Shown: piece by piece, positions 6,303 to 23,934 of the stretch
Layout: each line of letters starts with the position of its first letter
Position numbering within the stretch: the stretch's first letter is position 1
Notes under the pieces: model-generated
Database searches by the model: none
Told to the model about the DNA's origin: nothing
The model's input: only the letters and a program-made list of their open reading frames with translations
Translations under genes and position numbers: made by a program
Assembly (NCBI GenBank): GCA_002716355.1
Contig: PBAU01000003.1
Span: forward strand, 240,001-272,000
DNA length: 32,000 bases
Origin: a bacterium
Lineage (GTDB): Bacteria; UBP7; UBA6624
Direction of reading: 5' to 3'

Positions 6303-7229
6303 TCAAATTTTGTTGAATTTAAAAACTCGCAACTTTGCAGATCTGACTTGAGGCATTCTCGCTAACTCTGACTCATTAGGTTGAATCGGTTTCTTTGTAA
6401 CAATCTCTCCAAAACCCATTCTTTCCATTTTTTTATAAAAAGTCTTCACCTGTCTGTCTTCAGCACTATGCCACGTTAAAAAAACACCAATGCCACCCGC
6501 CCTGATTATTTCTAAAATTGAATTAAGCAATAGATCAAGCTCTTGTGATTCCCTGTTAACTTCTCTCCTTAAAGCCATGAAAATCTTTGTAGAAGGATGG
6601 ATTCTTTTAACGCCATTCTCAAAAAGAACTTCTGAAAGATGTTTACATGGCATTGAAGAAATATGCCTGTTTCTTACAATCTCATTTGTAATTTTTTTAT
6701 AACCCTTAATGCCACTTTCTTTGAAAATCTTATTTAATTGAGCTTCAGAGTATGAATTTAGTATTTCAGATGCTGTTAGAGTATTTTCACTTTTGTCAAA
6801 CCTCATATCAGCTTCTTCAACTCCATGAAATGACATATCTTCTCTATAAAGCTGGTCTAATCTAGCTCCAAGGTCAGCAAAAACAATATCACATTTCTTC
6901 CAACCTATTTTTTTCATAATTTTTTTTATCTGACTGTGTCTTGATTGAAAACATTGAAATTCAAACTTATTTAAACTGTCTTGTGGCGAATCTATATTTT
7001 TGAAAATTTTATTAAGTCTTTTTTGGGCTCTTTCAATTGACTCTTTATCCATGTCTAAACCAAGAACAGAACATCCACATTTCAAAAAAACTTCAGAATG
7101 CCCTCCATCCCCCAAAGTAGCATCAACAACCCTCAATGAACGTTCATTCAAGTAACCAGAATCACAAATCAAAGAATCAACAAACTGTTTAATTTCCACA
7201 GTCATTGCAGAAGGATGATAGCTAATCAT
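6303..7229 (-). CDS. rsmH: 16S rRNA (cytosine1402-N4)-methyltransferase RsmH/MraW
   Basis: YHPSAM...VVDATLGDGGHSE matches the RsmH N-terminus and SAM-binding motif HxPV / DxTxGxGGHS. I chose the ATG at 7229 (Met11 of the track ORF) because it starts 2 nt after the upstream TAG at 7222-7224. The longer 7259 start would overlap the upstream gene by 38 nt. Confidence 0.85.
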   Translation of the reverse strand: MISYHPSAMTVEIKQFVDSLICDSGYLNERSLRVVDATLGDGGHSEVFLKCGCSVLGLDMDKESIERAQKRLNKIFKNIDSPQDSLNKFEFQCFQSRHSQIKKIMKKIGWKKCDIVFADLGARLDQLYREDMSFHGVEEADMRFDKSENTLTASEILNSYSEAQLNKIFKESGIKGYKKITNEIVRNRHISSMPCKHLSEVLFENGVKRIHPSTKIFMALRREVNRESQELDLLLNSILEIIRAGGIGVFLTWHSAEDRQVKTFYKKMERMGFGEIVTKKPIQPNESELARMPQVRSAKLRVFKFNKI

Positions 7230-7632
7230 GCCAAAGCCACAACCCTCTTTCTTGATCAAAAAATCTAACCTTCTGATTTGAAGACTTCATAACCATGAAT
7301 TCACAAACAAACACCTCGCAGCCTTTCAGGACATGCCCTCCGTAAGTTTGACCTTTTTTATCAGATAAACTTATATGAAAATGTGGAAAAATAGCATCTT
7401 CAGTATTTGAATCAGATTTTAATGATATGTTCCCCGACAAAGAAACGATTTCTAAATCCTCCTCTATAAAAATTTCTTCATATCTCTCTTTTTTTTGGTT
7501 ATACCAAGCTATATTTGCCTGTTTCAAAGCACCTATACCTAAGATCCAACATGATTTAATTTTTTTATTTTTTGCAAAATCAAGAAGAGATTCAAGAAGG
7601 TCACATCCATTTTTCAAAGAATACATTTTCAT
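7222..7632 (-). CDS. PPC-domain (DUF296, PF03479-like) protein
   Basis: The pattern GCDLLESLLDFAK...CWILGIGALKQANIAWY...LEIVSLSGNISL...PHFHISLSDKKGQTYGGHVLKGCEVFVCEFMV fits the PPC/DUF296 fold signature (G.GAL...LEI.SL.GNI...H.H..L.....G...GGHL). Its ATG shares one nt with the lpxK stop (TAATG). Confidence 0.65.
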   Translation of the reverse strand: MKMYSLKNGCDLLESLLDFAKNKKIKSCWILGIGALKQANIAWYNQKKERYEEIFIEEDLEIVSLSGNISLKSDSNTEDAIFPHFHISLSDKKGQTYGGHVLKGCEVFVCEFMVMKSSNQKVRFFDQERGLWLWHD

Positions 7633-8570
7633 TACATCATATTTTCATTTAAAAATTTTAAAAAATCATTTGGAAGCTCAATTTTCCTAACCCTTATCCA
7701 ACAAGGAAAACCTTTTAATTGCCATCTTGAGGCATCTTTTTTTGTAATAATTACACCACCGTAAGATCTAGCATTCATAATAACAAGATTCTTCCATTTA
7801 GGAGAAATGGCATGATCGGGTATATTAAGATTAAAACAATCAATACCTTCACTCTTCAATTCCTCTTCCAAACTTTTAGAATTTGCTATGCCGGCAGCTA
7901 AAGGCAGCCTTGTTGATGGAGGATCTGTCGGTTCCCATTTTTCATCTAACCAATCATTACCATTTGATTTAATTTTAAATTTTTTAATAGAAGGTGCCCA
8001 TCTTTTAACTTCTGAAAAATCTGCATTTGGCATGGACAGCAAACAATCAGCACGAGAGTAAGAGCTTCCCCATTCTCTCAATAAGCCTTTTGGGAAAGGT
8101 ATCGATGCCTTATTGCCTGAAATAGAAACTATATTCAGGTCAACTTCTATTGATGCCCACTGAAAACCATCTTCTAAAATAACTACGTCACATCCAATTT
8201 TTGACAACTCTTCACAAAGATAATCCTTATCTTTTCCAATTGCAATAATCAAACCAGGAACCTCTTTTTTTATCAAGCTTGCTTCATCTCCAACTTCAAT
8301 ATCACAAAAATCCTGTCCAGGGCCAAAAATTTTATTATCCCATTTCCTCTTACCACCATAACCTAAAAGTACAATCCCCACATTTTTATACTTTTCTACT
8401 AAATATCTTGAAATCAGTATTGAAATTGGTGTTTTGCCTGCCCCGCCTGCTTGAACAGATCCGATACTAATGACCTTAGAAGAAAGTCTTATTGGCTTTT
8501 TCCCATAGTGCCTTCGTAGAGATTCCCTCAAGAAAGAATAAAAAATTTCCATTAATCCAGTTTTTTTCAT
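7632..8570 (-). CDS. lpxK: tetraacyldisaccharide 4'-kinase (lipid A biosynthesis)
   Basis: P-loop ISIGSVQAGGAGKTP, followed by LLGYGGKRK, VGDEASL and ILEDGFQW. These correspond to the LpxK motifs VGN..GGTGKTP, SRGYGG, GDEP and DDGFQH. Confidence 0.85.
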   Translation of the reverse strand: MKKTGLMEIFYSFLRESLRRHYGKKPIRLSSKVISIGSVQAGGAGKTPISILISRYLVEKYKNVGIVLLGYGGKRKWDNKIFGPGQDFCDIEVGDEASLIKKEVPGLIIAIGKDKDYLCEELSKIGCDVVILEDGFQWASIEVDLNIVSISGNKASIPFPKGLLREWGSSYSRADCLLSMPNADFSEVKRWAPSIKKFKIKSNGNDWLDEKWEPTDPPSTRLPLAAGIANSKSLEEELKSEGIDCFNLNIPDHAISPKWKNLVIMNARSYGGVIITKKDASRWQLKGFPCWIRVRKIELPNDFLKFLNENMM

Positions 8571-8699: not shown

Positions 8700-9215
8700 T
8701 TGAAGAAAATGGCAATTATTGGCACACAAATCACAATCGACAAAAATGGAAGATTTGTCGTCCCCTCTGATAAAAGAAGAATTTTTGACAATTCAAGAAA
8801 TATCGTTATCGTTCTGGATGATGCAGATGAAATAAGACGAAGAGTTTTAATTTATTCTGGAAAAAGCCATTTAACTCATTTAAATCATCTAAGAAGCCTT
8901 GCATCCAAAGGCTTTTTGACAAAATCTGGAGAAAGGTTGACAAAGGCAGAGAGCTTAAGGGTTGTTTCAATGTATGAAGAAAATGCTATTGTTAGAAGAA
9001 TAGATCCGTCTGGAAGGATGTCACTGCCTTTAGAGATTCTTGGATTAGCAGGGATTAAAGATATCGCGTACATTGGAGGAGTGCAAAGAATTGCGCTTTA
9101 TTCTCCTCCAATATGGAAACAACTTGTAGAGGAAAGAGAACATTTATTGAAATCTCTTAGCTACGAACAAAGAGTTGAATTGGCTGAAATACCTTTTGAA
9201 GGCCATGTTGAATAA
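8700..9215 (+). CDS. mraZ: transcriptional regulator MraZ
   Basis: Two SpoVT/AbrB-type halves, each with the DxxxR motif: IDKNGRFVVPSDKRR and IDPSGRMSLPLEIL. It is the first gene of a mur cluster. The start is either the TTG at 8700 or the ATG at 8709. Confidence 0.8.
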   Translation: MKKMAIIGTQITIDKNGRFVVPSDKRRIFDNSRNIVIVLDDADEIRRRVLIYSGKSHLTHLNHLRSLASKGFLTKSGERLTKAESLRVVSMYEENAIVRRIDPSGRMSLPLEILGLAGIKDIAYIGGVQRIALYSPPIWKQLVEEREHLLKSLSYEQRVELAEIPFEGHVE

Positions 9216-9240
9216 AAAATTATGCTAAAAAGGAGGCATT

Positions 9241-9354
9241 ATGAACAATAACAGAAAACCAGGAACGTTAGATTTCTTTTTCGAGCTACTAGTTCCTGTA
9301 TTTTTTTTAGTAATACTAACTGGTTACTTCATTGTTTCAACACTAGTTGTTTAA
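9241..9354 (+). CDS. 37-aa single-pass membrane micro-protein (hypothetical)
   Basis: Not in the ORF track because it is under 60 aa. AAAGGAGG lies 5 nt upstream of the ATG at 9241. My translation: MNNNRKPGTLDFFFELLVPVFFLVILTGYFIVSTLVV. This is a charged N-terminus followed by one hydrophobic helix. Confidence 0.45.
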   Translation: MNNNRKPGTLDFFFELLVPVFFLVILTGYFIVSTLVV

Positions 9355-9459
9355 ATGGTGAAAGATATACCAAAATGGGCTGTAACAATAGCTATTAGCA
9401 CTATTGTTGCGAGCGGGATTCTTTTCCTAGCAGGGTCAATCATGGAGGCTTTAATTTAA
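9355..9459 (+). CDS. 34-aa single-pass membrane micro-protein (hypothetical)
   Basis: The ATG immediately follows the previous stop (TAAATG), and its own TAA is immediately followed by the murE TTG start. My translation: MVKDIPKWAVTIAISTIVASGILFLAGSIMEALI. Confidence 0.4.
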   Translation: MVKDIPKWAVTIAISTIVASGILFLAGSIMEALI

Positions 9460-10887
9460 TTGAATGTAAAAGAATTAATCTCCACGATTGATTGTCTGTA
9501 TCAAGGGGATCTGGATAGTCAAATTTCAAAAATAAAAGAAGATTCCAAAAAAGTACAAAAGAAAGATATATTTATAACGCATGCGGGCATACGCGCACAC
9601 GCAATAGAAGCACAAAGAAAAGGTGCATCAACAGTACTCACTCCAATATTCTTCAAAAACCTAAAGGTAAATCAGATAATTGGAGACACAGCAAAATTGA
9701 AAAAAGACTTAATGAAAAAAGTCTACAAAGAAGCAATCAACAATATGAAAATTATTGGAATAACTGGTACAGACGGAAAAACAACAACCTCACTGCTCAC
9801 AAATAGCATCATCAATCAATCAAAAAGATCAGCCTCTATAGGCACGTTGGGGGTAAGAGGCAATGATATAGACATCAAAACACAACTCACCACTCCTCAA
9901 GCTTCTGATTTACTAAATACTTTAAATAAGCTATACCAAAAAAAATACAAATATGCAACTCTTGAATGCTCATCACATGGCTTGTTTCAAGACAGGATAG
10001 ACCCAATCAAATTAGAAGCTGCTGCAATCAACAGAGTAACAAGAGATCATTTGGATTTCCACGGCAATCAAAAATACTACTTTAAAGCAAAATCTCTAAT
10101 TTTTTCAAAACTGAATAATGGATCACCTGCAATAATCAATTCAAGCTCTCCATGGCTTGAAGCTTTGCAAAAAAAATATCCAAAATTGAATTGGATAACA
10201 TGGGGTAAAGAAAAAGGGGATGTGGTTGGAAGGATAATTTCCAAAACATTAACAAGATCAATTATTCAGATAAATCTTCCTGAAAGGAAAAATATTGAAG
10301 TAGAAACAAGCCTTGTAGGTGATTTCCAAATAGAAAACATCCTTGCATCCATATCTTTATGCCATAGCCTTGGATTTTCTGAATCCGAAATCATAAATGG
10401 AATATATAAACTCAAAAACGTACCAGGAAGAATGCAAAAAATAAAAAATGAAAAAACAAATGTATTTATTGATTATGCTCATACACCAAACGCAATAAAA
10501 AATTCAATTAAATCGTTGAAAACTGTATGCAAAGGAAGAGTTTTTGCTGTATTTGGATGTGGTGGAGACAGAGACAAGGGAAAGAGGCCTGAAATGATGA
10601 AAGCAGGCATGAATGCAGATAAATTATTCATTACATCAGATAACCCAAGAACAGAAAATCCAGATTCAATAATTAAAGATATGTTAAGCCAATGCAAACA
10701 ACCAAAAGGAATTGAGATTGAGAAAAACAGGAAAAAAGCGATTAAAAATGCAATTCAATCAGCAAAAAAAGATGATGTTGTTCTTATTGCAGGAAAAGGT
10801 CATGAAGAGTACCAAATAATAGGCGAAACAAAAAAACCTCATAATGATCTACTTTTTGCTAAGGAGGTACTTGCAAGTTGCGCTTAA
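9460..10887 (+). CDS. murE: UDP-N-acetylmuramoyl-L-alanyl-D-glutamate--2,6-diaminopimelate ligase
   Basis: Mur ligase P-loop GITGTDGKTTT, FGCGGDRDKGKRP, and the DAP-specificity motif SDNPRTE. TTG start with no alternative in-frame ATG nearby. Confidence 0.93.
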   Translation: MNVKELISTIDCLYQGDLDSQISKIKEDSKKVQKKDIFITHAGIRAHAIEAQRKGASTVLTPIFFKNLKVNQIIGDTAKLKKDLMKKVYKEAINNMKIIGITGTDGKTTTSLLTNSIINQSKRSASIGTLGVRGNDIDIKTQLTTPQASDLLNTLNKLYQKKYKYATLECSSHGLFQDRIDPIKLEAAAINRVTRDHLDFHGNQKYYFKAKSLIFSKLNNGSPAIINSSSPWLEALQKKYPKLNWITWGKEKGDVVGRIISKTLTRSIIQINLPERKNIEVETSLVGDFQIENILASISLCHSLGFSESEIINGIYKLKNVPGRMQKIKNEKTNVFIDYAHTPNAIKNSIKSLKTVCKGRVFAVFGCGGDRDKGKRPEMMKAGMNADKLFITSDNPRTENPDSIIKDMLSQCKQPKGIEIEKNRKKAIKNAIQSAKKDDVVLIAGKGHEEYQIIGETKKPHNDLLFAKEVLASCA

Positions 10888-12239
10888 CACCCCAAAACAT
10901 AATAAAAGCTCTAGGTAAAAAGGGGAGCGGACGGATACCGCCTAGCAATCTTTACATCACAAATGATTCAAGAAAAGTAAAAGAAAATTCTTTATTTGTT
11001 GCAATGAATGGCAAAAAAACAAATGGTAAAAAATTTATCAAACAAGCAATACAAAAAGGTGCTTCAGCAATAATTTCAAATGAAAAACTAAACCTTGGGA
11101 AAAAGATATGGGTATTAAACCACAAAGACCCACAGACTGCATATGGAAAAATAGCAAACACAGCAAGAAAAGAATGGGGTGGGAATGTTATCGGGATAAC
11201 AGGCTCTATAGGAAAATCAACAATTAAGGATCTGACTGCAGCAGCGCTTGGGACAAATGAAGATGTTGCCGCTTCACCCTACTCTTTTAATAATGAAATT
11301 GGGCTTCCTTATTCAATACTTAATGCAAAAGGCACAGAAAAATACATGGTCCTTGAAATGGGTGCAAAAAACCCTGGAGACATCAACTATTTAAAAAAAA
11401 TTGCAGAACCAAACTGTGCAATCTATTCTTTCATATGCAACAGCCACGCAGAATATCTAGGCGGCATACAAGGAGTAATAAAAGAAAAGGGGTCATTAGT
11501 TTCTGGCTGGAAGGAGGATAAAAGCTTAGTGATATCGTCAAAAAACAATCATCACAGAGAAATATCAAAACTTTCATCTGGTGCAAAAATAATCAAATGG
11601 GGACCTGGAGAACAAATCGATTCTGAAGAAATCAAATTGGACAAATATGGAATTCCTAGTTTCAAAATTAAATACAAAAACAAAACATATAAAGTTAACT
11701 TGAGTTTGCCGGGTTCTTTCCAGGTTGGAAATTCTTTAGCAGCATTATCTGCAGCTATTAATTTCAATGTTGATTTAAATAACGCCATAACAAGAATAGA
11801 GAAAGTCAAACCTCTTCCACACAGGAAAGAAATACATGAAATTAGGAATGATGGAATTTTATTAGATGATTGCTATAACGCAGGTGCAAAATCAACAAAA
11901 GAAAGCATTAGATGGGCTTCTTCAATATCTGTTAAACGGCCAAAAGTAATGATACTGGGTGACATTCTAGAAACTGGCAATAATGAAATAAAAATGCATA
12001 AAGAAATCGGAAAAATAATTAAAGATAATCAATATTCTCAATTATTAACAGTTGGAAATTTAGCAAAACATGCATTAAAGGAATCAGGTATAGATGGTTC
12101 ACATTATCAGAAAATTGATGATCTTCTGAATGATTTAAAAAAATATGATTTTTCAGCAAAGGTCATACTTGTAAAAGGTTCAAGATCAATACGGCTTGAA
12201 AAAATTACAAAAAAAATTAGGGAGATTTTTTCTACGTAA
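10878..12239 (+). CDS. murF: UDP-N-acetylmuramoyl-tripeptide--D-alanyl-D-alanine ligase
   Basis: GITGSIGKSTIKD P-loop, the LDDCYNAG motif, and its position between murE and mraY. The TTG start overlaps murE by 10 nt. Confidence 0.9.
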   Translation: MRLTPQNIIKALGKKGSGRIPPSNLYITNDSRKVKENSLFVAMNGKKTNGKKFIKQAIQKGASAIISNEKLNLGKKIWVLNHKDPQTAYGKIANTARKEWGGNVIGITGSIGKSTIKDLTAAALGTNEDVAASPYSFNNEIGLPYSILNAKGTEKYMVLEMGAKNPGDINYLKKIAEPNCAIYSFICNSHAEYLGGIQGVIKEKGSLVSGWKEDKSLVISSKNNHHREISKLSSGAKIIKWGPGEQIDSEEIKLDKYGIPSFKIKYKNKTYKVNLSLPGSFQVGNSLAALSAAINFNVDLNNAITRIEKVKPLPHRKEIHEIRNDGILLDDCYNAGAKSTKESIRWASSISVKRPKVMILGDILETGNNEIKMHKEIGKIIKDNQYSQLLTVGNLAKHALKESGIDGSHYQKIDDLLNDLKKYDFSAKVILVKGSRSIRLEKITKKIREIFST

Positions 12240-12242
12240 GAA

Positions 12243-13298
12243 ATGAACTTTTTCAACAAGCACTCTTTTTTTTATACATTGTGCTTTTTGATAATTTTCA
12301 ATTTCATACTTGACCAAAATCCACATAACAGTATTTATATAAGCGACAATTTTCCTAAGCTAAATTACCAAAATCTCTTAATCGGGATATTCATACTCGC
12401 AATATTTTCATTTAATTCATACTTAAAAGTTGCAGGCAGAAAAGGCTGGGGCCAATACGTAAGACGGGAAGGATTAAAAACACACTTGAAAAAAACAGGC
12501 ACGCCAACAGCGGCAGGATGGATATTTTTTGTGATGTCAATTGTCCCACTTTGTATTCTCTTACCCAATTTTCTAATGAATAAAAATATTTTATGGGTAC
12601 CCCTGCTAGCAATAACGGTGATGTTCCTGACTGGACTAATGGATGATCTTTACAAAATAAAAGGAACAAAGGAGGGTCTTCTTGCAAGATATAGGCTTTT
12701 AGCTCAATTTTTAGTTGGCTCTCTTTTAGGGTATTACTTCCTACCTTGGGATTTATATACCAACATAGCTGTTGGTTTCTTATTGTTTGGTACTGCCGTC
12801 AATGGTATTAATTTTACCGATGGATCTGATGGTCTTCTGGCGGCAGTTATCCTTGCAACACCAATTGGGCTTTTAATACTTTATGCCATCTCTCAAACCA
12901 TGGGAATAGGTTTTCCTATCGTAAGCTCTAAGTTTGTTTTTGTTTTATTGGGTTTACTAATGCTCTCATGGATTCCTTTCAATAAATATCCTGCTAAATT
13001 ATTCATGGGTGAAACTGGCTCCTACACAATTGGAGCAATAGTAGGCTTCGTTGCAATATATTCACTACAAAGCGAACCGATAATTACTTTTCTGCTGCTC
13101 TCTGTACCGATTTTCCAAATTGCAACTGTTGTAATTCAGGTTTTCTTTTATAAAAAATTTGGCATAAGGGTATTTCTGATGGCTCCATTTCATCATCATC
13201 TTGAAAAAAAAGGATGGAGTGAAAACAAAATAGCCTACTCAGCTTTCTTTTTTCAATTGCTTTTAACTGTTTCTCTAATAGGGAGTGTTACCTACTAA
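12243..13298 (+). CDS. mraY: phospho-N-acetylmuramoyl-pentapeptide transferase
   Basis: GQYVRREGLKTHLKKTGTPTAAG, NGINFTDGSDGL and MAPFHHHLEKKGWSE match conserved MraY motifs. The protein is polytopic and hydrophobic. Confidence 0.95.
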   Translation: MNFFNKHSFFYTLCFLIIFNFILDQNPHNSIYISDNFPKLNYQNLLIGIFILAIFSFNSYLKVAGRKGWGQYVRREGLKTHLKKTGTPTAAGWIFFVMSIVPLCILLPNFLMNKNILWVPLLAITVMFLTGLMDDLYKIKGTKEGLLARYRLLAQFLVGSLLGYYFLPWDLYTNIAVGFLLFGTAVNGINFTDGSDGLLAAVILATPIGLLILYAISQTMGIGFPIVSSKFVFVLLGLLMLSWIPFNKYPAKLFMGETGSYTIGAIVGFVAIYSLQSEPIITFLLLSVPIFQIATVVIQVFFYKKFGIRVFLMAPFHHHLEKKGWSENKIAYSAFFFQLLLTVSLIGSVTY

Positions 13299-14488
13299 TG
13301 AAAACGCTTGTTTATGGCATGGGTATAAGTGGCAAATCCACTGCTGAGCACTTAAAAAGAAAAAGGGAAGATTTTGTTGTTTATGACGATAACAAAAAAT
13401 CAAAAAAATACACCAATTGGAATCAAGATCTTTCTGGGATAAAAACAATAGTGGCTTCTCCTGGGATACCTTCTACGAATACGATTTTAAAAAAAGCTCA
13501 AAATCTGAACATACCAATACATTGCGACATTGGTCTTGCATCTTTTGAGAAGAAACTACCAAAAATAATTTCTGTAACTGGCACTGCTGGAAAGACAACA
13601 CTTGTCAGCCTACTTGTCGATGTTTTAAATGCAAATGGAAAAAAATCAATAGCATTAGGGAACTATGGTCTTTCCCCATTGGATATACTGAAAAGCAATT
13701 ACGAATACTGGGTCATAGAAGTTTCAAGTTTTCAATCAAAAAGACTCGCCTTTTTAAAACCAAACATAGGCATTTATTTAAATCTTTCTCAAAACCATCT
13801 TGATTGGCATGAAACGATTGAAGATTACAAAATTTGCAAAGGAACAATCTTCAAGAACCAAGATGCTGATGATTTGAGAATAGTAAATTCTGATCTTGAA
13901 AAAAAATACATCAAAGGCAAAGCAAAAGAAAAAGAAATAAAGAAAAATGAATTTTCAAATTTAAGAAAAGATATTCATGAAGACACCTTGTCTACTGTTG
14001 GCTTATGCATAAAAGAGTTAAACCTGAATCACGAAATAGCCAAGCAGTCAATCATTAATTTTAAGACGTTAATGCATAGGTATCAAAAAATAACTACAAA
14101 TGATGGGATCCATTGGATTAATGATTCAAAAGCAACAACCCCTCTTGCTACATTAACTGCTATAGAGAGAACTCCTGTTGGATCAATAGTCCTAATGGGT
14201 GGAAGTGACAAAGACCTTGACTACAAAAAAACATTAAAGAAAATAAAAAATAAAAAAATGAAATTAATACCATTTGGTGGTATATCCCATGCATTACACA
14301 AAGAAGCAAGCAAGCTTTCAGTAGATTCATCAAAACCATGTAATTCATTAGAAAAAGCAATTCAAAAAGCAAAAAATAACGGAAAAGGAAAAACCATACT
14401 GCTATCGCCAGGAACAGCAAGTTTTGACGAGTTTACAGGCTACGCACAAAGAGGAATGTACTTTATCGAAAAAATAAAAGGAGGTTGA
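13298..14488 (+). CDS. murD: UDP-N-acetylmuramoylalanine--D-glutamate ligase
   Basis: ISVTGTAGKTT P-loop, NDSKATT, and LLSPGTASFDEF near the C-terminus. TAATG overlap with mraY. At 396 aa it is somewhat shorter than typical MurD. Confidence 0.9.
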   Translation: MKTLVYGMGISGKSTAEHLKRKREDFVVYDDNKKSKKYTNWNQDLSGIKTIVASPGIPSTNTILKKAQNLNIPIHCDIGLASFEKKLPKIISVTGTAGKTTLVSLLVDVLNANGKKSIALGNYGLSPLDILKSNYEYWVIEVSSFQSKRLAFLKPNIGIYLNLSQNHLDWHETIEDYKICKGTIFKNQDADDLRIVNSDLEKKYIKGKAKEKEIKKNEFSNLRKDIHEDTLSTVGLCIKELNLNHEIAKQSIINFKTLMHRYQKITTNDGIHWINDSKATTPLATLTAIERTPVGSIVLMGGSDKDLDYKKTLKKIKNKKMKLIPFGGISHALHKEASKLSVDSSKPCNSLEKAIQKAKNNGKGKTILLSPGTASFDEFTGYAQRGMYFIEKIKGG

Positions 14489-14490
14489 TT

Positions 14491-15897
14491 ATGGATAGTC
14501 AAAAAAACATACACTTTATAGCAATGGGGGGAAGCGGAATGGAGCCTCTTGCAAGATGGTGCGCAGAAAAAGGATATAAAGTTTCAGGTTCTGATATTTC
14601 AGAAAAATCAGTAAAAAAACTAAATAAACTTGGTTTCAACTGCAAGCTTAAACACTCTGAAGATAATATTCCGAGCGATTGCAATCTTGTTGTTTATTCC
14701 AACGCAATACCAGAAAACAATATAGAGGTTCAAGAGGCAAAGCAAAGAAACATAACAAGATTACATAGACCAATATTTCTTGCAAAACAATTTAACAAAG
14801 CAGAAAAAAGAATAGCTGTAACTGGAACTCATGGGAAAACAACAACAAGCTCTTTGATATCGTGGATTGTGTATAAGTCCGGAAGGGATCCTAATGTTCT
14901 CATTGGTGGAGAAATGCTTAACTGGAATGCTGGCTATAAAGTTGGAAGAAATAACTATTTTGTTGTTGAGGCAGATGAAAGTAATCCTGAATTTGTAAAT
15001 CTTGATCCAACAACACTTGTTCTAAACAATCTAGATTGCGATCACATGGACACATACAGAACAATGGAAAATCTTGAAAGATACATTACGGATTACATAA
15101 CAAGCCGTGATGAAAAATGCAATTTCGTAATGCCTAGAGAAAAAGGATTAGGAATGTCAAGAATACTTGAAAATAGTTCAATTAGACCGGGCAGCATCAT
15201 CACAACAGCTTTAATCGAAGACGACAAAGAACTTGGTCAAGGAAGCATGGCTGACAGAGCGTTGCTGGAGGGAAAAATAATCAGCGAAGGTGAAAGAGGG
15301 ATGCTAATGAGAGTTTTGTATTATGGCCTTCCATTAGGTGAATTCTTTTTACCTCTTTCAGGAAAGCATAATGCAAGAAATGTTCTTTCAGCAATTGGTG
15401 CATGCTTGACATTAGGGATGGATGAAAATGAAATTTATGAAGGCTTAAGGTCTTTTAAGGGTGTAGGCAAAAGAATGGAAAAAATTGGCGATACTGTTAT
15501 AGGTGAAATTTTTTCAGATTATGCACATCATCCTACAGCTCTTAGAGAAACACTAAAAAGTATTAAAAATAAATATAAAAATAAAAAAATTGGAATCGTT
15601 TTTGAGCCACATAGGTACACAAGATTGCAAAAAACACATGAACAATTTTCAAATGTTTTAAACTCTTTTAAATTCAATCAAAAACTAATATTGCCAATTT
15701 ATACAGCAGGAGAGAAAAAAATTGATGGAATAAGCAGTGAACTGCTTGTAAGAAAAAATCCTGACTGCCAATTGGTAAAACAAGAAGACATAATTGAAAA
15801 TCTTGAAAATGGTGAAAATGATATAGTCGTATTTTTAGGAGCAGGAAGCATACATAAAATTGCTCATCAAACATTTAAACTTTGTCAAATTAACTAA
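14491..15897 (+). CDS. murC: UDP-N-acetylmuramate--L-alanine ligase
   Basis: HFIAMGGSGMEPLARWCAEKGYKVSGSD and VTGTHGKTTTSSL are MurC signatures. I prefer the ATG at 14491, which lies 6 nt after AAAGGAGG; the track offers the TTG at 14485. Confidence 0.93.
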   Translation: MDSQKNIHFIAMGGSGMEPLARWCAEKGYKVSGSDISEKSVKKLNKLGFNCKLKHSEDNIPSDCNLVVYSNAIPENNIEVQEAKQRNITRLHRPIFLAKQFNKAEKRIAVTGTHGKTTTSSLISWIVYKSGRDPNVLIGGEMLNWNAGYKVGRNNYFVVEADESNPEFVNLDPTTLVLNNLDCDHMDTYRTMENLERYITDYITSRDEKCNFVMPREKGLGMSRILENSSIRPGSIITTALIEDDKELGQGSMADRALLEGKIISEGERGMLMRVLYYGLPLGEFFLPLSGKHNARNVLSAIGACLTLGMDENEIYEGLRSFKGVGKRMEKIGDTVIGEIFSDYAHHPTALRETLKSIKNKYKNKKIGIVFEPHRYTRLQKTHEQFSNVLNSFKFNQKLILPIYTAGEKKIDGISSELLVRKNPDCQLVKQEDIIENLENGENDIVVFLGAGSIHKIAHQTFKLCQIN

Positions 15898-16766
15898 TGC
15901 TACAAAAATTTAAAAACTTTGATGGTAAAAATCTAACCACCTTCAAAATTGGTGGAAAGATCGGAAAACTCCTTATTGCATCAAATATAAAAGAACTAAA
16001 AGAAGCAATTCAAATTCTTTCAAATGAAAAAAAATGGCTGATTTTAGGTGCTGGAAGCAATATTTTAATGTCAGACAAAGGGCTAGATGGGGCAATAAAG
16101 CTTAAAGGAGATTTTTTAAAAATTACACATCATAAAAACCTAATATCCTGTGGTGGCGGAGCATTTGGATCAGCAGTAGTTAAATATGCTGAAAATCAAT
16201 CCCTATCTGGAATAGAACCATTTTCAGGACTGCCGGGAACCGTTGGCGGATGGATAGCAACAAACTGCGGCCCAAAAGAAATGAACATTATCGATATACT
16301 GGAATCAGTTACAGTCATAAATAAAAAAACACTTCGGATAAAAACACTTCGGAAAAAAGATTTTGACTATAGTTACAGATACTGTTCGCTAAAAAATCAA
16401 TACGGAATAATCAATGTCAACTTCAAATTGAGGAACAAACAAAAAGAAGAAATAAAACAAAAAAATAAAAAATATATGAAGTACAGATTGTCAACACAGC
16501 CTAAAGGAAGTTCTGTAGGTTGTATATTCAAAAACCCTAAAGGTAAATCAGCTGGAAAGATAATAGATTCATGTGGCCTTAAAGGGTTTAAAATGAAAAA
16601 TTTACAAATTTCAAAAACACATGGAAACTTCATAATAAATCAAGGAAAATCAAAAGCTGAAGATGTATTTGAAATGATAGAGCTTATCAAAAAAAATGTA
16701 TTTTCAAAAACAGGAATAAGGCTAACTGCTGAAGTCGAAAAAATAGGACATTTCAAACATGAATGA
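15897..16766 (+). CDS. murB: UDP-N-acetylenolpyruvoylglucosamine reductase
   Basis: FAD-binding N-terminus LTTFKIGGKIG...ILGAGSNILMSD, plus SSVGCIFKNP. TAATG overlap with murC. Confidence 0.9.
   Translation: MLQKFKNFDGKNLTTFKIGGKIGKLLIASNIKELKEAIQILSNEKKWLILGAGSNILMSDKGLDGAIKLKGDFLKITHHKNLISCGGGAFGSAVVKYAENQSLSGIEPFSGLPGTVGGWIATNCGPKEMNIIDILESVTVINKKTLRIKTLRKKDFDYSYRYCSLKNQYGIINVNFKLRNKQKEEIKQKNKKYMKYRLSTQPKGSSVGCIFKNPKGKSAGKIIDSCGLKGFKMKNLQISKTHGNFIINQGKSKAEDVFEMIELIKKNVFSKTGIRLTAEVEKIGHFKHE
16326..16355 (+). repeat. in-frame 15-bp tandem duplication inside murB
   Basis: AAAACACTTCGGATA (16326-16340) is followed directly by AAAACACTTCGGAAA (16341-16355), 14 of 15 identical. The two copies encode KTLRI and KTLRK. 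Confidence 0.9.
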
Positions 16767-17757
16767 TAACTTATTTGGAAAACAAGAAAAAAACAAACTA
16801 GACATAAATGTAAAAATTATTGCTTTAGGAGGTGCAGGATGCAAAATATTAAAAAGGATTAATAGCAGATTGCATAAAAACATTCAAAAGGATGCAATAG
16901 ACACATCAATATCAAGCTTAAACAATCTTTCAGAAGATATCAAAAAATACAACGTAGCAACAGATAGATATGGAGGAAAAGGTACTGATTGTGATTATTA
17001 TGGATTAAAAGAATACCTCGTTGAAGACAGGATGGAAAATATAAAAATTGAAAAAACAGAAAATATTGATTTAATAATTTTTATATCCTGCTTGGGCTAT
17101 GGCAGTGGGTCAGCAATTCTTCCATGGGCGCTTGAACAGCTAGAAGAATCATTGGACCAACTTGGAAGAAAAACAATCAAACTAGGTTTTTTTATCCAAC
17201 CTGCAATAAATGAAAACCCTGACTCTTTAGAAATAATTGACGACTCTTTGAAGCATTCAAATGAAAAACTTGATTCCTACTTGATGATATCAAACGATAA
17301 ACTCTATTCAAATTTTCAAGGAACATTAGAAGATGCCTTGCATAAAGCTGATTCTTGCCTTATGGAAATTATTGACTTAATTATTAAAAATAATTACAAC
17401 ACCATAAATCTAGACAAGGCAAACATACTGGAGTTTTTTAGAAATGCAGGGCAAATACATTTCGGACAAGGAAAATCAAAAGAAGAAACAATGATACATA
17501 TGGCTATTGAAGAATCATTTGAGGGGGCGTTGTTAAGACCATTGCCAATAAACAAACCTCCCCGTAGGGCTTTATGCTGGATAAATGGCCCTCCAATTAG
17601 TGCTTGCCTGCATCAAGAAATAGTGGAAAGCATATCCTCAAGACTATCCCCTTCCATTAATGGAAAACAAGGAAAAGTTAACATATCAATAAATACAATG
17701 AATCAAAAAATGGTCGAAATACACCTGATGCTAAGTAGCAAACAGAGAATTGCATAA
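16759..17757 (+). CDS. divergent, short FtsZ/tubulin-superfamily protein in the ftsZ position
   Basis: Overlaps murB by 8 nt. By-eye alignment to FtsZ: VKIIALGGAGCKI (T1), DLIIFISCLGYGSGSAILP (T4, nt 17095-17115), LMISNDKLY (T6/H7), NTINLDKANILEFF (T7). The motifs are degenerate and there is no C-terminal linker or tail. Confidence 0.6.
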   Translation: MNDNLFGKQEKNKLDINVKIIALGGAGCKILKRINSRLHKNIQKDAIDTSISSLNNLSEDIKKYNVATDRYGGKGTDCDYYGLKEYLVEDRMENIKIEKTENIDLIIFISCLGYGSGSAILPWALEQLEESLDQLGRKTIKLGFFIQPAINENPDSLEIIDDSLKHSNEKLDSYLMISNDKLYSNFQGTLEDALHKADSCLMEIIDLIIKNNYNTINLDKANILEFFRNAGQIHFGQGKSKEETMIHMAIEESFEGALLRPLPINKPPRRALCWINGPPISACLHQEIVESISSRLSPSINGKQGKVNISINTMNQKMVEIHLMLSSKQRIA

Positions 17758-17758
17758 A

Positions 17759-18349
17759 ATGATAATACCTCCAAGTGTAAAAATTGTTGCAGCTGTAAAA
17801 AACAGAAACGACTTAGAGTTAGAAAGAATCTATTCAAAAGGTATAAATAATTTTGGAGAAAACAGATTACAAGAACATTTAAATAGATCCGAAACAATTA
17901 AAAATAAAAATATACATTGGCATTTCATTGGAAGAATTCAAACGAATAAAATTAAAAAAATATCTAAAGAATTCAAGTTCATACATTCAATATCTAGATT
18001 TTCAGAAATTAAACAAATATCAAAATTAGGACCACCATATCCAATATGCTTGATTCAAGTAAATCTAGGTGATGATTCAAAATCAGGAATCAAGCCAACA
18101 GAACTAAAGCCTTTATTAGACATGACAAAGGAGGAAAATCCAAAACTACCAATCAAAGGCCTAATGACAATGCCTCCTTATACAACAAATCCAGAAGAAA
18201 ATAGAATGTGGTTTAGAGAGGTAAAAAAATTGGGGTATGAAAATTTCAAAAAACCATTATTATCCATGGGAACGACTCAAGATTGGAAAATAGCAATATC
18301 TGAAGGTTCAAACATCATAAGACTGGGGAGAAAAATTTTTGAATTCTGA
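17759..18349 (+). CDS. yggS: YggS/YlmE-family pyridoxal-phosphate-binding protein
   Basis: KIVAAVKNR contains the PLP lysine. FGENRLQE, WHFIGRIQTNKIKKI and LSMGTTQDW are also present. I prefer the ATG at 17759, one nt after the upstream TAA; the track offers the TTG at 17750. Confidence 0.85.
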   Translation: MIIPPSVKIVAAVKNRNDLELERIYSKGINNFGENRLQEHLNRSETIKNKNIHWHFIGRIQTNKIKKISKEFKFIHSISRFSEIKQISKLGPPYPICLIQVNLGDDSKSGIKPTELKPLLDMTKEENPKLPIKGLMTMPPYTTNPEENRMWFREVKKLGYENFKKPLLSMGTTQDWKIAISEGSNIIRLGRKIFEF

Positions 18350-19124
18350 ATGGATTGAACATTTAATACTTGGTTTGATTCAGGGGATTACAGAATTTCT
18401 ACCAATTTCATCTACTGGCCATCTTGTGCTTATAAGAAACTTTTTTGGAATAAACCCAGAATCAAATTCTGCTATTTTAACCATATTACATCTTGGAACA
18501 CTTTCAAGCCTGCTTGTTGTTGAAGGCAAAAATTTAACTAAAATGATATTATCTAAACATCCATTTCGCAATATTGAGTTCCATGCAATATTCATAACAA
18601 CACTTGCAACTTTAATTTTCTACTTATCTTTTCAAAATTTATTCGAATCAAGCTTCCAGGATGCAGGAAGCGTTGCGATAGGTTTAGTTTTCACTGCATT
18701 TATTTTAGTTTACGCAGAATTAAGAAAATCAAAATCATTTAAAAACCTGAGACATACGACCTTTTTAGACTGGATTGCAATAGGTTTCTTGCAGGCAGTT
18801 GCAATCATACCTGGGGTCAGTAGATCTGGAGCGACAATAGCTGGAGGATTACTTATTGGCATGAATAGATATGATTCAGTTAAATTCTCATTTATGCTAT
18901 CAATACCAGTGATACTAGGAGCTACTTTGATAAAACTGGAAAATATAGAATCGTACATTACTGCTAATCCAGGACCTGCAATATTGGGATTTTTGACTGC
19001 TTTTACATTCGGAATATGGGCAATGAAATTCATGTTAAATTATGTCAAAAAAAATAAACTTGAACCATTTGCTATATATTGCTTGATATTAGGATTCCTT
19101 TCAATATTGGTGGTAAGCAGATGA
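18339..19124 (+). CDS. uppP: undecaprenyl-diphosphate phosphatase (BacA/UppP)
   Basis: GLIQGITEFLPISSTGHL and PGVSRSGATIAGG are the two UppP signature motifs. The protein is polytopic. The TTG start overlaps yggS by 11 nt. Confidence 0.9.
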   Translation: MNSEWIEHLILGLIQGITEFLPISSTGHLVLIRNFFGINPESNSAILTILHLGTLSSLLVVEGKNLTKMILSKHPFRNIEFHAIFITTLATLIFYLSFQNLFESSFQDAGSVAIGLVFTAFILVYAELRKSKSFKNLRHTTFLDWIAIGFLQAVAIIPGVSRSGATIAGGLLIGMNRYDSVKFSFMLSIPVILGATLIKLENIESYITANPGPAILGFLTAFTFGIWAMKFMLNYVKKNKLEPFAIYCLILGFLSILVVSR

Positions 19125-21121
19125 GACTAAAAATCAACCTAGAAACTTTTTTGATTTTGTTTGTCATGTATCACACAATTGCAACAACGACACAAATACT
19201 CGATCCACTATCAGAAAACTATAGAGAGTTATTTATTTCTTTATGGGGTAAAAAATCATGGATTTATCCTTTAATTCTTGTTTATCCCATCCTAAATTCA
19301 ATCAATGAAAAAAAATTCATTAGACTTCTTTTGGTTCCCTGGCTATTTTTACTTCTTGGATCTGGAAGTGATTCTGGCATATGGGGAAAAAACATTTATT
19401 CTTTTGTCCGGAGCATAATTGACAATGAAGGAATAATAATGCTAAATATATTTGCCTTCATTTCAATTGGTATTATTTACTTTAATTTACACGAACATGT
19501 AAAAAATGCTTTTCAAGATTTGCATAAAAAAAATAGCTTTGAGAAAGATTTCAATTCTGGCAATTTTGAAAAAGATTATGAATCATTGAAAAAATCTAAA
19601 ATAACAACAAGCACCCTAGTGAAGAAAGATACAAAAAAGAAAATTACTCAAAAAATAAAAATCCAAAAAAATGATAAAAAAACTACTAAAAAGCACGAAG
19701 GCAAGCCAGTAACAAAAGGCTACCATATACCAATAGAACTTTTACATAAACCAGAGCCAGTAATAGAAATGGGGGTGCAGGAAGTCAAAGATATGGCTGA
19801 GACGATTATAAAAACCTTAAAAGATTGTGCTGGATCTGAAACCTTTTATGAAAGCTGTGCTCAAGGACGTTCTGTTGTAAGGTTTGAATTCAGAGTTTCT
19901 CCATCGGCAAATTTATCAAAAATAAGAAGTTCTGCAGAAAATATTGCAGTAGCTATTGCAAGCGTAGGAAAAGTCAGAATAGAAGCGCCTGTTATTGGCA
20001 AAAGCACCATAGCTGTAGAAATACCTCAAAGAAATAAATCGATTCTGAGATTAAGCGAAGTTATAAAAAATCAAAAAAACGCTAATGGTTTAAACTTCAT
20101 AATGGGAGCCCAGGTAGATGGAAGTCTATTTAATGTAGATTTAGCGGCATTACCGCATATGCTAATCGCAGGGGCAACACAATCGGGAAAATCAGTTTTT
20201 GTAAATACATTATTGTTAAATTTAATATACAACAAAAGCCCAAAAGAACTGAAGCTAATACTTGCCGATATGAAAAAAGTTGAACTAACCCTCTATAAAG
20301 ATATTCCTCACCTTTTAGTCCCGATTGTTTCAACCCCAGATCCAGCATTAAATGCATTAGATTGGGCAAGAATGGAAGTTGATCGCAGATACGAGCTGCT
20401 AGAAGAATCCAAAACAAAAAATTTAGAAGAATACAACAAAAAAACTAAAAACAAACTTCCATACATAGTTATAGTCTTAGAAGAGCTTTCAGCACTTTTA
20501 ATAACATCCAAAAACAGAGTAATAGAGTCCTTGTCTGACCTTTCAGAAAGAGCAAGAGCAGCAGGAGTTCATTTAATTGCAACAATGCAAAGACCCGATT
20601 CAAAAAAGCTAGATGGGTCTGTTAAAGCTAACCTCCCTGGGAAAGTTAGCTTCAGATTAGGGACAAGATCTGACTCAATAACAGTTTTTGGCAAAGGTGG
20701 AGCGGAAAATCTTCTAGGCAGAGGAGACCTTTATTTCGATAGTCCAACACACCCTGAGTTAATAAGGTGTCAGGCTCCATTGGTAGAAACAGAAGAGATA
20801 GAAAAAGTGCTTAATTATCTAATTAAAAATTATGGTGAAGCTGAGTATGACAAATCAGTTGAAGGTGAAGTGATCACACCAATAGATGAAATTAATGACG
20901 ACATTTTAGATGGTATGTCAAGCACCGATCGTCAACTAATCAATGATATTAGACAAAGAATCAAAGATGAAGATGCAATAAGCGTGAGTCAGCTTCAAAG
21001 ACTTTTTGGTATTGGATACAATAAAGCATCGAGAATGATGATGATAATGGAGCAATTAAATTGGGTTCATCAAGACCCAAATACATCAGCAGGGAAAAAA
21101 GGATGGGTAGTTGATTTGTGA
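19121..21121 (+). CDS. ftsK: DNA translocase FtsK/SpoIIIE
   Basis: Hydrophobic N-terminal domain, Lys-rich linker, Walker A IAGATQSGKSV, Walker B region YIVIVLEELSAL, and a gamma winged-helix ISVSQLQRLFGIGYNKASRMMMIMEQLNWV. I prefer the ATG at 19121, which overlaps the uppP stop (ATGA). Confidence 0.9.
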   Translation: MRLKINLETFLILFVMYHTIATTTQILDPLSENYRELFISLWGKKSWIYPLILVYPILNSINEKKFIRLLLVPWLFLLLGSGSDSGIWGKNIYSFVRSIIDNEGIIMLNIFAFISIGIIYFNLHEHVKNAFQDLHKKNSFEKDFNSGNFEKDYESLKKSKITTSTLVKKDTKKKITQKIKIQKNDKKTTKKHEGKPVTKGYHIPIELLHKPEPVIEMGVQEVKDMAETIIKTLKDCAGSETFYESCAQGRSVVRFEFRVSPSANLSKIRSSAENIAVAIASVGKVRIEAPVIGKSTIAVEIPQRNKSILRLSEVIKNQKNANGLNFIMGAQVDGSLFNVDLAALPHMLIAGATQSGKSVFVNTLLLNLIYNKSPKELKLILADMKKVELTLYKDIPHLLVPIVSTPDPALNALDWARMEVDRRYELLEESKTKNLEEYNKKTKNKLPYIVIVLEELSALLITSKNRVIESLSDLSERARAAGVHLIATMQRPDSKKLDGSVKANLPGKVSFRLGTRSDSITVFGKGGAENLLGRGDLYFDSPTHPELIRCQAPLVETEEIEKVLNYLIKNYGEAEYDKSVEGEVITPIDEINDDILDGMSSTDRQLINDIRQRIKDEDAISVSQLQRLFGIGYNKASRMMMIMEQLNWVHQDPNTSAGKKGWVVDL

Positions 21122-22065: not shown

Positions 22066-23148
22066 ATGAAAAAAACATTAATAATTATTTTTACATCTTT
22101 GATTTTCTCTTCATGCGGGAAAGTCAATAACGAACACACCCTGCTCTATCTTGTCAATGAAAGGCCAGATGAAGTTGTTATAGTTGACACATCTGATCAA
22201 AAGGTTATCAACAGATTCATGGCTGGAGAGGGCTTGAATGATTTAACTCTTGTTCCAGATCAAGGAATAGGGTTTATAGCAAATCAACATGGCGGTGTAA
22301 TATCTGTTGTTGATTTAAACATGGGGACATTAGAAAGTGAAATACCCACAAATGGCTTCCCTTTACATTTAACCAGTCCTCCTTCTGGAGAAAAAGTTTA
22401 TGCAACTATAGCAAACCCGGAAACACTTCAAGCAAATGAAGTAAGTGTTTTTTCTGTTAGCTCTTCATCTTTTATTGAATCAATACCGATAGGAAACACA
22501 ATAAACAATATAGAAATACATCCTGATGGAAAAACTCTTTATGCCACAAGGGCAAATACTGCAATGCTATTTCTGGTTGACACAACTAAAAAAACAATAA
22601 GAAAAGAAAAAGTTTTGTCTAATTCTCCTGCAGCAATGGCTGTAAGTCCAGATGGGAAATATATTGCTCTGGCTTTAACGCAGACTGACACAGTTCAAAT
22701 ATATGACCAAAATGCAGAAGATTTAATATTCTCCATACCTGTAGGTGATGCTCCAAGAGCAGTAACATTTTCAGATGATGGAAAATTAGTTTTAGCTGCT
22801 GACATGAGAACAAGATTTGTTCATATCGCAAAAACTGAATCAGGAGAAATTATTGGAAAAATAAAATTTGATATGGCTCCAACAAATTTAAGAGTGGTTA
22901 ATGGAAAAGTTTGGGCTACAGTCAAAGCTCCTTTTATATTCGGGGCAGACCTTGAAAGCTTGGAGATAACAGACAAAATACATCTAAACTCTATACCTGT
23001 TACATTTGAAGCAATAGCTCCTAACAAACTCTCATCAAATAATACTGATTCTGGTTTGCCAATAACTGAAATTGCTATATTTTTAGTTATTTTTTATCTT
23101 ATAAAAAAAGCTAAAAAACGAGAAAAGAAAGAAAAGGAAGGAAAATAA
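22066..23148 (+). CDS. YVTN-type beta-propeller lipoprotein with C-terminal transmembrane/basic tail
   Basis: Signal peptide with lipobox LIFSSC. Repeated roughly 40-aa units of the YVTN propeller type (VYATIAN, LYATRAN, AVSPDGKYIALA, VTFSDDGKLVLAA). The C-terminus is GLPITE-IAIFLVIFYLI-KKAKKREKKEKEGK. Confidence 0.7.
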   Translation: MKKTLIIIFTSLIFSSCGKVNNEHTLLYLVNERPDEVVIVDTSDQKVINRFMAGEGLNDLTLVPDQGIGFIANQHGGVISVVDLNMGTLESEIPTNGFPLHLTSPPSGEKVYATIANPETLQANEVSVFSVSSSSFIESIPIGNTINNIEIHPDGKTLYATRANTAMLFLVDTTKKTIRKEKVLSNSPAAMAVSPDGKYIALALTQTDTVQIYDQNAEDLIFSIPVGDAPRAVTFSDDGKLVLAADMRTRFVHIAKTESGEIIGKIKFDMAPTNLRVVNGKVWATVKAPFIFGADLESLEITDKIHLNSIPVTFEAIAPNKLSSNNTDSGLPITEIAIFLVIFYLIKKAKKREKKEKEGK

Positions 23149-23934
23149 TTGAATAAAGAAATAGGAATATTCCTTCTATTAGCTCTTAGTTCCTGTTCAG
23201 GCTCTCAGCCAACTAGCGCTAGAGTTCCATCGGCTGCAACAAGCACAAAAAATAGACCTCCAGTTATCGAAAGTCTAGAAACAAGTCCAAAATTTGTTTC
23301 TTTTTCAGGTGAAGCAACAACAAGAGCAATAGCTTCGGATCCAGATTTTGACAGATTGGATTTTCTATGGGAAATTACAGGCGGAAAAATCCTGGAAGGT
23401 AAAAACACCCCTTTTGTAAAATGGAAAGCTGATGAAGGTTCTGAAAAAATAAACATAAAAGTCACAGTAAAGGATTCAGATGGTTACAAAGAAGAAAATC
23501 TTGAATTAAAACTTACGAAAAAAAATCTTTTTCTTGAAGAGAAAAAACCTGAAAAAGAAAAACATGGTGAAGAATATAAAATTTTTCTAAAAACAATCAA
23601 TATCGATTCCTTTAGCATGTCCAACATTCAGATTAATTACCCTTCTGAAAAAATAAAATTAAAAAATATTGTCTTTAATGGTTTGGAAAAAAAAGATCAT
23701 GAAGATTGGTATTCGATCATAGATGCTTCAAAAATAGGAAAAATAAAAATAACCCTCCTCCCGAAAGGGGAAAAAGAAAAAAAAGGAGGAAAGATTGCCA
23801 CGGTTAATTTCATCTTAAGGGATGATTCTTACCCTTTGATTAATGATTTTTCCTTTAAACAAACCGGAAAAGAAATAGGATTTTGGAATAAAGTTAAAGA
23901 AATTATTCCAGTAGCCTTGTCAAATCCAAAATAA
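23149..23934 (+). CDS. lipoprotein with Ig-like (PKD-type) and cohesin-like domains (hypothetical)
   Basis: The TTG start abuts the previous stop. Lipobox LLALSSC. PPVIESLETSP...ASDPDFDRLDFLWEITGG...INIKVTVKDSDG follows the common PKD/Ig-like pattern. The C-terminal half (KIFLKTINIDSF...IQINYPSEKIKLKNI...KIATVNFIL) looks cohesin-like, by eye only. Confidence 0.5.
   Translation: MNKEIGIFLLLALSSCSGSQPTSARVPSAATSTKNRPPVIESLETSPKFVSFSGEATTRAIASDPDFDRLDFLWEITGGKILEGKNTPFVKWKADEGSEKINIKVTVKDSDGYKEENLELKLTKKNLFLEEKKPEKEKHGEEYKIFLKTINIDSFSMSNIQINYPSEKIKLKNIVFNGLEKKDHEDWYSIIDASKIGKIKITLLPKGEKEKKGGKIATVNFILRDDSYPLINDFSFKQTGKEIGFWNKVKEIIPVALSNPK

Follow-up and report, generated by a model that had tools for sequence, protein, structure and literature searches.

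In a 32,000-nucleotide stretch of the genome of an uncultured bacterium (assembly GCA_002716355.1, contig PBAU01000003.1, positions 240,001 to 272,000 of the forward strand; the whole stretch is called the window below), a gene for a protein of 332 amino acids (aa) occupies the place of ftsZ in the cluster of cell wall and division genes (dcw cluster). Comparison of sequences places it in a very small, unannotated family of strongly derived, tail-less FtsZ proteins, most likely orthologs of FtsZ and probably impaired in hydrolysis. We consider it probable that this gene is the orthologous ftsZ of a deep lineage, inherited vertically and far diverged from canonical FtsZ, yet functional. It corresponds to NCBI entry MBG97957.1, annotated as 'hypothetical protein CL659_02390 [bacterium]' and derived from a 367-kb contig of a Tara Oceans metagenome-assembled genome; it is called here the ftsZ-like gene, and all positions are those of the window unless stated otherwise (Table 1).

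Results

An earlier reading of this DNA, made by eye without database searches (the sequence-only reading), had recognized an FtsZ homolog in the protein, and sequence and structure searches agree in placing it in the FtsZ family. The Pfam Tubulin model PF00091 matches residues 17-185 with 45.8 bits (cutoff 33, E = 1.1e-11), and its gathering score is also exceeded by two distant relatives, P0004 and P0006. In a phmmer search against the Protein Data Bank (PDB), the first 38 matches were all FtsZ, the best being Aquifex 2r6r (E = 7e-12, over residues 17-299), and FtsZ was found exclusively down to E = 5e-4, with CetZ 3zid following at E = 0.1 and Asgard tubulin at 0.46. The AlphaFold2 (AF2) model, computed from a shallow input alignment of 9 sequences, reached a predicted local distance difference test score (pLDDT) of 83 and a predicted template modeling score of 0.86, pLDDT falling below 50 solely at residues 1-13 and 214-216. 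Foldseek comparison of this model with the PDB returned FtsZ for all of the top 50 matches (E to 3e-22, template modeling [TM] scores of 0.64-0.82, ~325 aligned columns). According to the model, the protein has the complete FtsZ core, namely, the GTPase domain, helix H7, and the FtsZ-type C-terminal subdomain; Pfam FtsZ_C PF12327 gave no match in the protein at E up to 10, and this domain is present structurally all the same. An identity as CetZ, TubZ, tubulin, or BtubAB was rejected, PDB sequence scores and the Foldseek top 50 both favoring FtsZ.

The protein nevertheless scores 56.3 bits with the NCBIfam FtsZ equivalog TIGR00065, against a cutoff of 295.2 for canonical FtsZ. This is 0.19 of the cutoff, compared with 0.75 to 1.6 of their own NCBIfam cutoffs for ten neighboring genes; genome-wide fast evolution was rejected as the cause, since the neighbors come close to their equivalog cutoffs or exceed them. 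The median core identity to FtsZ homologues is 22.6%, compared with 33-40% among those homologues, which are the best HMMER matches to a divergent query and not an unbiased sample of canonical FtsZ. Ratios of nonsynonymous to synonymous divergence (dN/dS) were estimated by the pairwise Nei-Gojobori method on the same genome pairs for all genes and are approximate, since dS approaches or exceeds saturation in the more distant pairs. They amounted to 0.027-0.082 for the ftsZ-like gene, 0.05-0.12 for murC, 0.10-0.20 for murB, and 0.13-0.23 for yggS, so that purifying selection is stronger on the ftsZ-like gene than on these three neighbors. Altogether, the divergence is specific to this gene, and the present state of the gene is actively maintained.

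The family is rare. A word-indexed search of 5.8 billion proteins yielded three close relatives only, 77-92% identical, and an exhaustive HMMER search of 1.84 billion representative proteins yielded at E < 1e-30 only three full-length family clusters (P0002, P0004, and P0006, respectively 76%, 36%, and 31% identical to the window protein), plus two fragments; beyond the family, scores drop to no more than 79 bits, reached by ordinary FtsZ. P0004 is MBC8514840.1, which is likewise annotated as hypothetical. The gene occurs in four GTDB species representatives, over 15 independent assemblies carry it intact, and the same length and end point recur across many assemblies and in relatives 29-35% identical. 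As for the host, the alanyl-tRNA synthetase (AlaRS) encoded on the same contig is 99-44% identical within the lineage and then ~40% identical to many unrelated phyla, a level that we judged ordinary for such a distance; the source of the 44%-identical AlaRS is the P0004 genome, as the close accession numbers indicate. The host is a deep-branching uncultured lineage with marine members.

The motifs were placed with a MAFFT alignment of the family, 144 FtsZ homologues that the exhaustive HMMER search had returned, and E. coli FtsZ, whose sequence was checked by its length of 383 and by the presence of N207, D209, D212, GGGTGTG, and NDKL at the expected positions. This placement agrees with the phmmer PDB alignments and reproduces every motif that the sequence-only reading had assigned by eye, i.e., T1, T3 (GGKGTDCD), T4, T5 (PAINEN), the intact NDKL of T6, and T7, including the Asn at the equivalent of D212. 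In E. coli numbering, the residues kept are G19, G20, and G22 of T1, T44, G67, G69, G105, G107, G109, P134, E138, N165 of NDKL, the H7 Asp at 186, N207, and D209. Among them, the guanine-recognition residues and the T5 Glu (N165, D186, and E138) correspond to N179, D198, and E152 of the window protein. The substitutions from canonical FtsZ to the window protein are G17A, N24K, D45S, G71D, G106Y, T108S, G111A, F135A, G139N, R142S, F210K, and D212N. On this alignment, contacts to base and ribose survive along with one aspartate of T7, and the changes cluster around the phosphates, the catalytic water, and the Mg site.

The earlier description of the nucleotide-binding loops as eroded thus applies to the phosphate, Mg, and catalytic positions (D45, G71, G106, G111, R142, and D212) and fails for the guanine and ribose contacts, which are intact (N165, D186, E138, and the GGxG of T1). 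Since the base contacts are intact and the erosion lies at phosphate and catalytic positions, the term pseudo-GTPase, which had been proposed as well, is too strong, and a nucleotide-binding protein with poor hydrolysis is the better reading. Among the relatives, T4 reads GGATGSA in P0004 and GGGTGAA in P0006, the window protein departing from the canonical signature, and at the position of D212 the window clade has N, P0004 has H, and P0006 has D, the window protein lacking the canonical N-x-D-x-x-D. The T4 series from GGGTGAA through GGATGSA to GYGSGSA, together with the variable catalytic position, suggests a stepwise relaxation of the hydrolysis machinery. Invariant throughout the family are GGAG, DTS (where canonical FtsZ has NTD), GGxG, an LPW after T4, NDxL, D219, LRP, PPxRALxW, and RLxP.

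Both ends of the protein depart from those of canonical FtsZ. Its last residue aligns with E. coli position 319, in keeping with the earlier claim that linker and C-terminal peptide are absent, and a C-terminal docking motif ([DE]-[IV]-P-x-F-L-[RK]-like) was not found in any family member. At the other end, all members begin with an invariant M-x-[DE]-x-LFG followed by ~10 variable residues, in the segment predicted to be disordered (AF2 pLDDT below 50). This peptide is conserved behind either upstream gene, murB or, in the two distant relatives, a gene called X here, and hence the constraint acts on the ftsZ-like protein and not on an overlapping frame. To our knowledge, canonical FtsZ N termini are not conserved in this manner.

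TABLE 1 Features of the ftsZ-like gene and its surroundings (window positions; substitutions in E. coli numbering)
Feature	Position	Strand	Remarks
Divergent FtsZ-family gene	16759..17757	+	332 aa plus stop; Pfam, NCBIfam, PDB, and Foldseek matches
N-terminal peptide MNDNLFG	16759..16779	+	M1, L5, F6, and G7 invariant in all family members, to 29% identity
Tubulin/FtsZ GTPase domain, residues 17-185	16807..17313	+	PF00091, 45.8 bits
T1 loop GGAGCK, G24-K29	16828..16845	+	GGxG kept; N24 equivalent is Lys
T4 tubulin signature GYGSGSA, G113-A119	17095..17115	+	Versus GGGTG[ST]G; G106Y, T108S, G111A
T7 synergy loop NLDKAN, N217-N222	17407..17424	+	N207 and D209 equivalents kept; D212 equivalent is Asn
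FtsZ-type C-terminal globular subdomain, residues ~229-326	17443..17736	+	Present in the model; protein ends 6 residues later
mraZ	8700-9215	+	
Upstream reduced dcw part: mraZ, two tiny transmembrane (TM) ORFs, murE, murF, mraY, murD, murC	8700..15897	+	Without ftsL, ftsI, ftsW, murG, ddl, ftsQ, ftsA
murB	15897..16766	+	Stop overlaps start of ftsZ-like gene
yggS/ylmE family pyridoxal phosphate (PLP) protein	17750..18349	+	TIGR00044, 134.6 bits versus cutoff of 106.25
uppP (bacA) and ftsK	18339..21121	+	Syntenic with the ftsZ-like gene in all relatives

The genes of the region lie on the plus strand with tight spacing, in the order mraZ, two tiny membrane open reading frames (ORFs), murE, murF, mraY, murD, murC, murB, ftsZ-like, yggS, uppP, ftsK, and lgt, in a window that is AT-rich (GC ~0.33). 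The ftsZ-like gene sits at the distal end of the dcw cluster (murC-murB-ftsZ-like-yggS), as the sequence-only reading had it. Its start, the ATG at 16759, and the stop TGA of murB at 16764-16766 overlap (ATGAATGA), its own stop overlaps the start of yggS, whose assignment exceeds the TIGR00044 cutoff, and ftsK is found two genes downstream. A published analysis describes the adjacency of ftsZ and ylmE as the ancestral Terrabacteria-type dcw arrangement (PMC5943314). The best sigma-70-like match of the region (11/12) is just upstream of mraZ; such matches are no evidence of function, and this one fits a single operon.

Domains of FtsA, SepF, FtsQ, FtsW, and FtsI were not found in any real ORF of the window nor in the called genes up to 10 kb on either side, which bears out the earlier remark that the cluster holds neither ftsA nor sepF. 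Neither the dcw cluster nor the 10 kb on each side of the window holds ftsL, ftsI, ftsW, murG, ddl, ftsQ, or ftsA, and the cluster as a whole (6303-8570 on the minus strand and 8700-16766 on the plus strand) is unusually reduced and rearranged, rsmH lying on the opposite strand (6303-8570 region) and a PCC-domain gene and lpxK lying between rsmH and mraZ. The two tiny ORFs between mraZ and murE are back to back (9241-9354 and 9355-9459, plus strand), encode 37 and 34 aa with one hydrophobic helix each, and occupy the usual position of ftsL; three related contigs (L005, L012, and L013) have a gene call for the 37-aa ORF as well. A second FtsZ-like sequence was found in none of the fetched loci, among them the flanks reaching 10 kb beyond both ends of the window.

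Gene order around the ftsZ-like gene is conserved in all close relatives and extends to the distant ones. In L018, the locus that encodes P0004 (35% identity, GC 0.53), recovered through a metagenome scan, the order murE-murF-mraY-murD-murC-murB-X-ftsZ-like-yggS-uppP-ftsK is kept, with lgt and a beta-propeller gene farther downstream; L006, the GC-rich locus of P0006 (29% identity), reads murF-mraY-murD-murC-murB-X-ftsZ-like-yggS-uppP before the contig ends. Gene X (L006:6370-7143 and L018:9157-10002, encoding 257 and 281 aa) lies between murB and the ftsZ-like gene in these two relatives only, in the usual ftsQ/ftsA slot; neither the window nor its flanks contain it. Identity between the two X proteins is 33% (E of 1e-17 to 1e-19), and both carry the motifs WG-x-[IV]-RVDRW and GWW..P.GA..RRA. 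No Pfam, NCBIfam, or PDB sequence match and no homologue was detected for them; a degenerate FtsA or FtsQ was considered and left aside, there being no such matches. X could be a lineage-specific partner or tether of the ftsZ-like protein.

Downstream of ftsK-lgt, a beta-propeller protein (YncE/PQQ-repeat-like) is followed by a ~261-aa protein with a weak PKD-like or M36-C-terminal-like region (22066-23934, plus strand; L018:16279-18164). This pair is kept in close and distant relatives alike and is thus part of the same deeply conserved gene block. Elsewhere in the window, a 221-aa protein (717-1382, plus strand) has an N-terminal SLH domain, then a coiled-coil-like region, and weakly resembles the SLH-anchored 'somb' porin family; this protein and lpxK together suggest a diderm envelope, tethered to the wall via SLH domains, as in Terrabacteria-type diderms. 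MurD (13298-14488, plus strand) and UvrC (26765-28351, plus strand) are 'hypothetical protein' in NCBI, yet both match their own families clearly; in general, genomes of this lineage are poorly served by automatic annotation. The window itself contains neither tRNA genes nor Rfam matches.

Discussion

We propose a model in which the ftsZ-like protein would still bind guanine nucleotide and polymerize head to tail, as suggested by the retention of the guanine and ribose contacts (GGxG of T1, E138, N165, and D186) and of D209 at the longitudinal interface. GTP hydrolysis would probably be slow or absent, in view of D45S, G71D, G106Y, G111A, R142S, and, in the window clade, D212N, resulting in filaments that may be more static than those of treadmilling canonical FtsZ. 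In tubulin, the equivalent of D212 is the catalytic Glu254 of alpha-tubulin and the non-catalytic Lys254 of beta-tubulin, where the catalytic acidic residue of the T7/H8 motif is likewise replaced. The same 'NxDxx[DE]' position is altered in T7 mutants of E. coli FtsZ, and FtsZ(D212N) is GTPase defective and forms stable protofilaments (PMC3573117). In contrast to this laboratory mutant, the change seen here is natural, fixed, under purifying selection, and accompanied by further changes near the phosphates.

Because the protein has no C-terminal linker or peptide and neither ftsA nor sepF is found nearby, the membrane or the divisome would have to be reached by a non-canonical tether. The leading candidate would be the disordered N-terminal M-x-[DE]-x-LFG peptide, whose conservation and disorder make it a candidate partner-docking motif. 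Inside-out rings have reportedly been described by Osawa and Erickson. A membrane-targeting sequence can be placed at either end of FtsZ, and the end used alters the orientation and behavior of the filaments on membranes (PMC9111741), so that an N-terminal tether would not be a trivial swap. A bolder version of the model, in which this protein is the sole FtsZ of a deep lineage and forms an essentially non-hydrolyzing, D212N-type filament held by an N-terminal LFG tether in place of the universal C-terminal peptide, or else represents an intermediate toward FtsZ-independent division as in Planctomycetota and Chlamydiota, is one that we put forward as a possibility rather than as the expected outcome.

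Several points weigh against a functional ortholog of this kind. The search for FtsZ covered ~52 kb around the gene, and a canonical FtsZ may be encoded elsewhere in the genome. Changes of the G106Y type in the phosphate loops could abolish nucleotide binding altogether, and other residues could, conversely, rescue hydrolysis. Moreover, D212 is kept in P0006, the most distant relative, and the loss of hydrolysis may therefore be specific to one clade. The docking role of the N terminus is pure inference from conservation and disorder, and the shallow alignment behind the AF2 model, as well as the query-dependent choice of the canonical set, counts on the same side.

Such an undetected FtsZ is the premise of an explanation that we regard as unlikely, namely, a non-catalytic paralog acting beside a canonical FtsZ as a modifier or copolymer partner. 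Chloroplast FtsZ1 with FtsZ2, FtsZm, and beta-tubulin, with its non-catalytic T7 residue, would be comparable. The missing C-terminal peptide and the altered T7 do recall known accessory FtsZ paralogs, and with D212N the 'bottom' face is weak in catalysis, part of the nucleotide pocket being kept. The ftsZ slot of the dcw cluster is, however, occupied by this gene in all relatives, the very distant ones included, whereas additional ftsZ copies lie outside the dcw cluster in a published survey (PMC9871819); no second FtsZ-like sequence occurs in the fetched loci, and purifying selection exceeds that on neighboring essential genes. The sequence-only reading had left the choice between a highly derived division protein and a pseudo-GTPase paralog, and the dcw slot, the selection, and this survey favor the former.

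Less probable still would be a relic of a transition to division without FtsZ, of the kind seen in Planctomycetota and Chlamydiota, that has lost nucleotide binding and dynamic filaments and serves as a non-cytokinetic scaffold, e.g., for organizing peptidoglycan precursor synthesis. The loss of ftsA, ftsQ, ftsW, ftsI, and ftsL from the cluster and the replacement of T4 and T3 glycines by bulky or charged residues would suit such a relic, as would the nearby ftsK, given that lineages of the Planctomycetes-Verrucomicrobia-Chlamydiae group can lose ftsZ and ftsA while ftsK stays central (PMC12283558). Nevertheless, the genome may carry the absent divisome genes at other sites, dN/dS is very low, and the family-wide invariance of N165, D186, E138, and D209 is hard to square with lost nucleotide binding and polymerization. 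Finally, a protein shorter than typical FtsZ and labeled 'hypothetical protein' in NCBI could have been an annotation or assembly artifact or a pseudogene, i.e., an ftsZ truncated by a premature stop. This is effectively refuted by dN/dS (0.03-0.08) and by the recurrence of the same length and end point in independent assemblies and in distant relatives; in addition, the stop overlaps the start of yggS, which begins at once, so that no downstream remnant of an FtsZ tail is possible.

A divergent but functional ftsZ ortholog, as favored here, can be compared with the closest known systems. With canonical FtsZ (TIGR00065; E. coli, S. aureus, and Aquifex 2r6r), it shares the two-domain fold (TM score up to ~0.8), the distal dcw location, the GGxG of T1, N165/NDKL of T6, the H7 Asp (D186), E138, and N207/D209 of T7; it differs by its score (56 bits versus 295), its ~22% core identity, GYGSGSA, D45S, G71D, R142S, and D212N, by the absence of linker, C-terminal docking peptide, and adjacent ftsA/ftsQ, and by the added N-terminal LFG. 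In chloroplast FtsZ1 and magnetotactic FtsZm, too, the FtsZ core lacks the conserved C-terminal docking peptide, but these proteins coexist with a full-length FtsZ, have canonical GTP-binding motifs, and lie outside the dcw ftsZ slot. The chloroplast pair FtsZ1/FtsZ2 is treated in a published paper (PMC12343686).

FtsZl1 and FtsZl2 are also highly divergent bacterial members of the FtsZ-tubulin superfamily annotated as hypothetical (PMC2875224), and both identities were rejected on the published architectures. FtsZl1 has ~1000 aa, with an FtsZ-like domain at the N terminus, a long coiled coil, a helical C-terminal domain, and no recognizable T6-H7, in a vWA/OmpA/GTPase gene context, and the proteobacterial FtsZl2 carries ~300 extra C-terminal residues forming a unique alpha/beta region (PMC2875224). 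In contrast to these two non-dcw families, the window protein is a compact core of 332 aa with T6, H7, T7, and the FtsZ-type C-terminal subdomain, encoded inside the dcw cluster and without any extra C-terminal region. FtsZ of Verrucomicrobia and the second, divergent copy found in the Candidate Phyla Radiation have been described as the most divergent bacterial FtsZs (PMC9871819; PMC12283558). The verrucomicrobial gene is dcw linked as well, but its product has a long essential C-terminal extension and a Pfam FtsZ_C match, and it stands beside ftsQ and ftsA, whereas the window protein has neither tail nor FtsZ_C match and its gene has no ftsA neighbor.

In bacterial cytokinesis, it is regarded as near universal that GTP hydrolysis drives the treadmilling of FtsZ and that FtsZ is tethered by its C-terminal peptide. 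If our reading is true, this family would provide a natural, selected FtsZ ortholog devoid of the T7 catalytic aspartate, of several phosphate-loop residues, and of the whole tail, yet still residing in the dcw operon. It would thus constitute a natural experiment on which properties of FtsZ are indispensable, on how a Z scaffold is anchored without FtsA, SepF, or ZipA docking, and on how a lineage may drift toward FtsZ-independent division; if the N-terminal tether is true, the protofilament would touch the membrane with its opposite face. Moreover, since its members are annotated as hypothetical, genome surveys would wrongly count this lineage as FtsZ-less.

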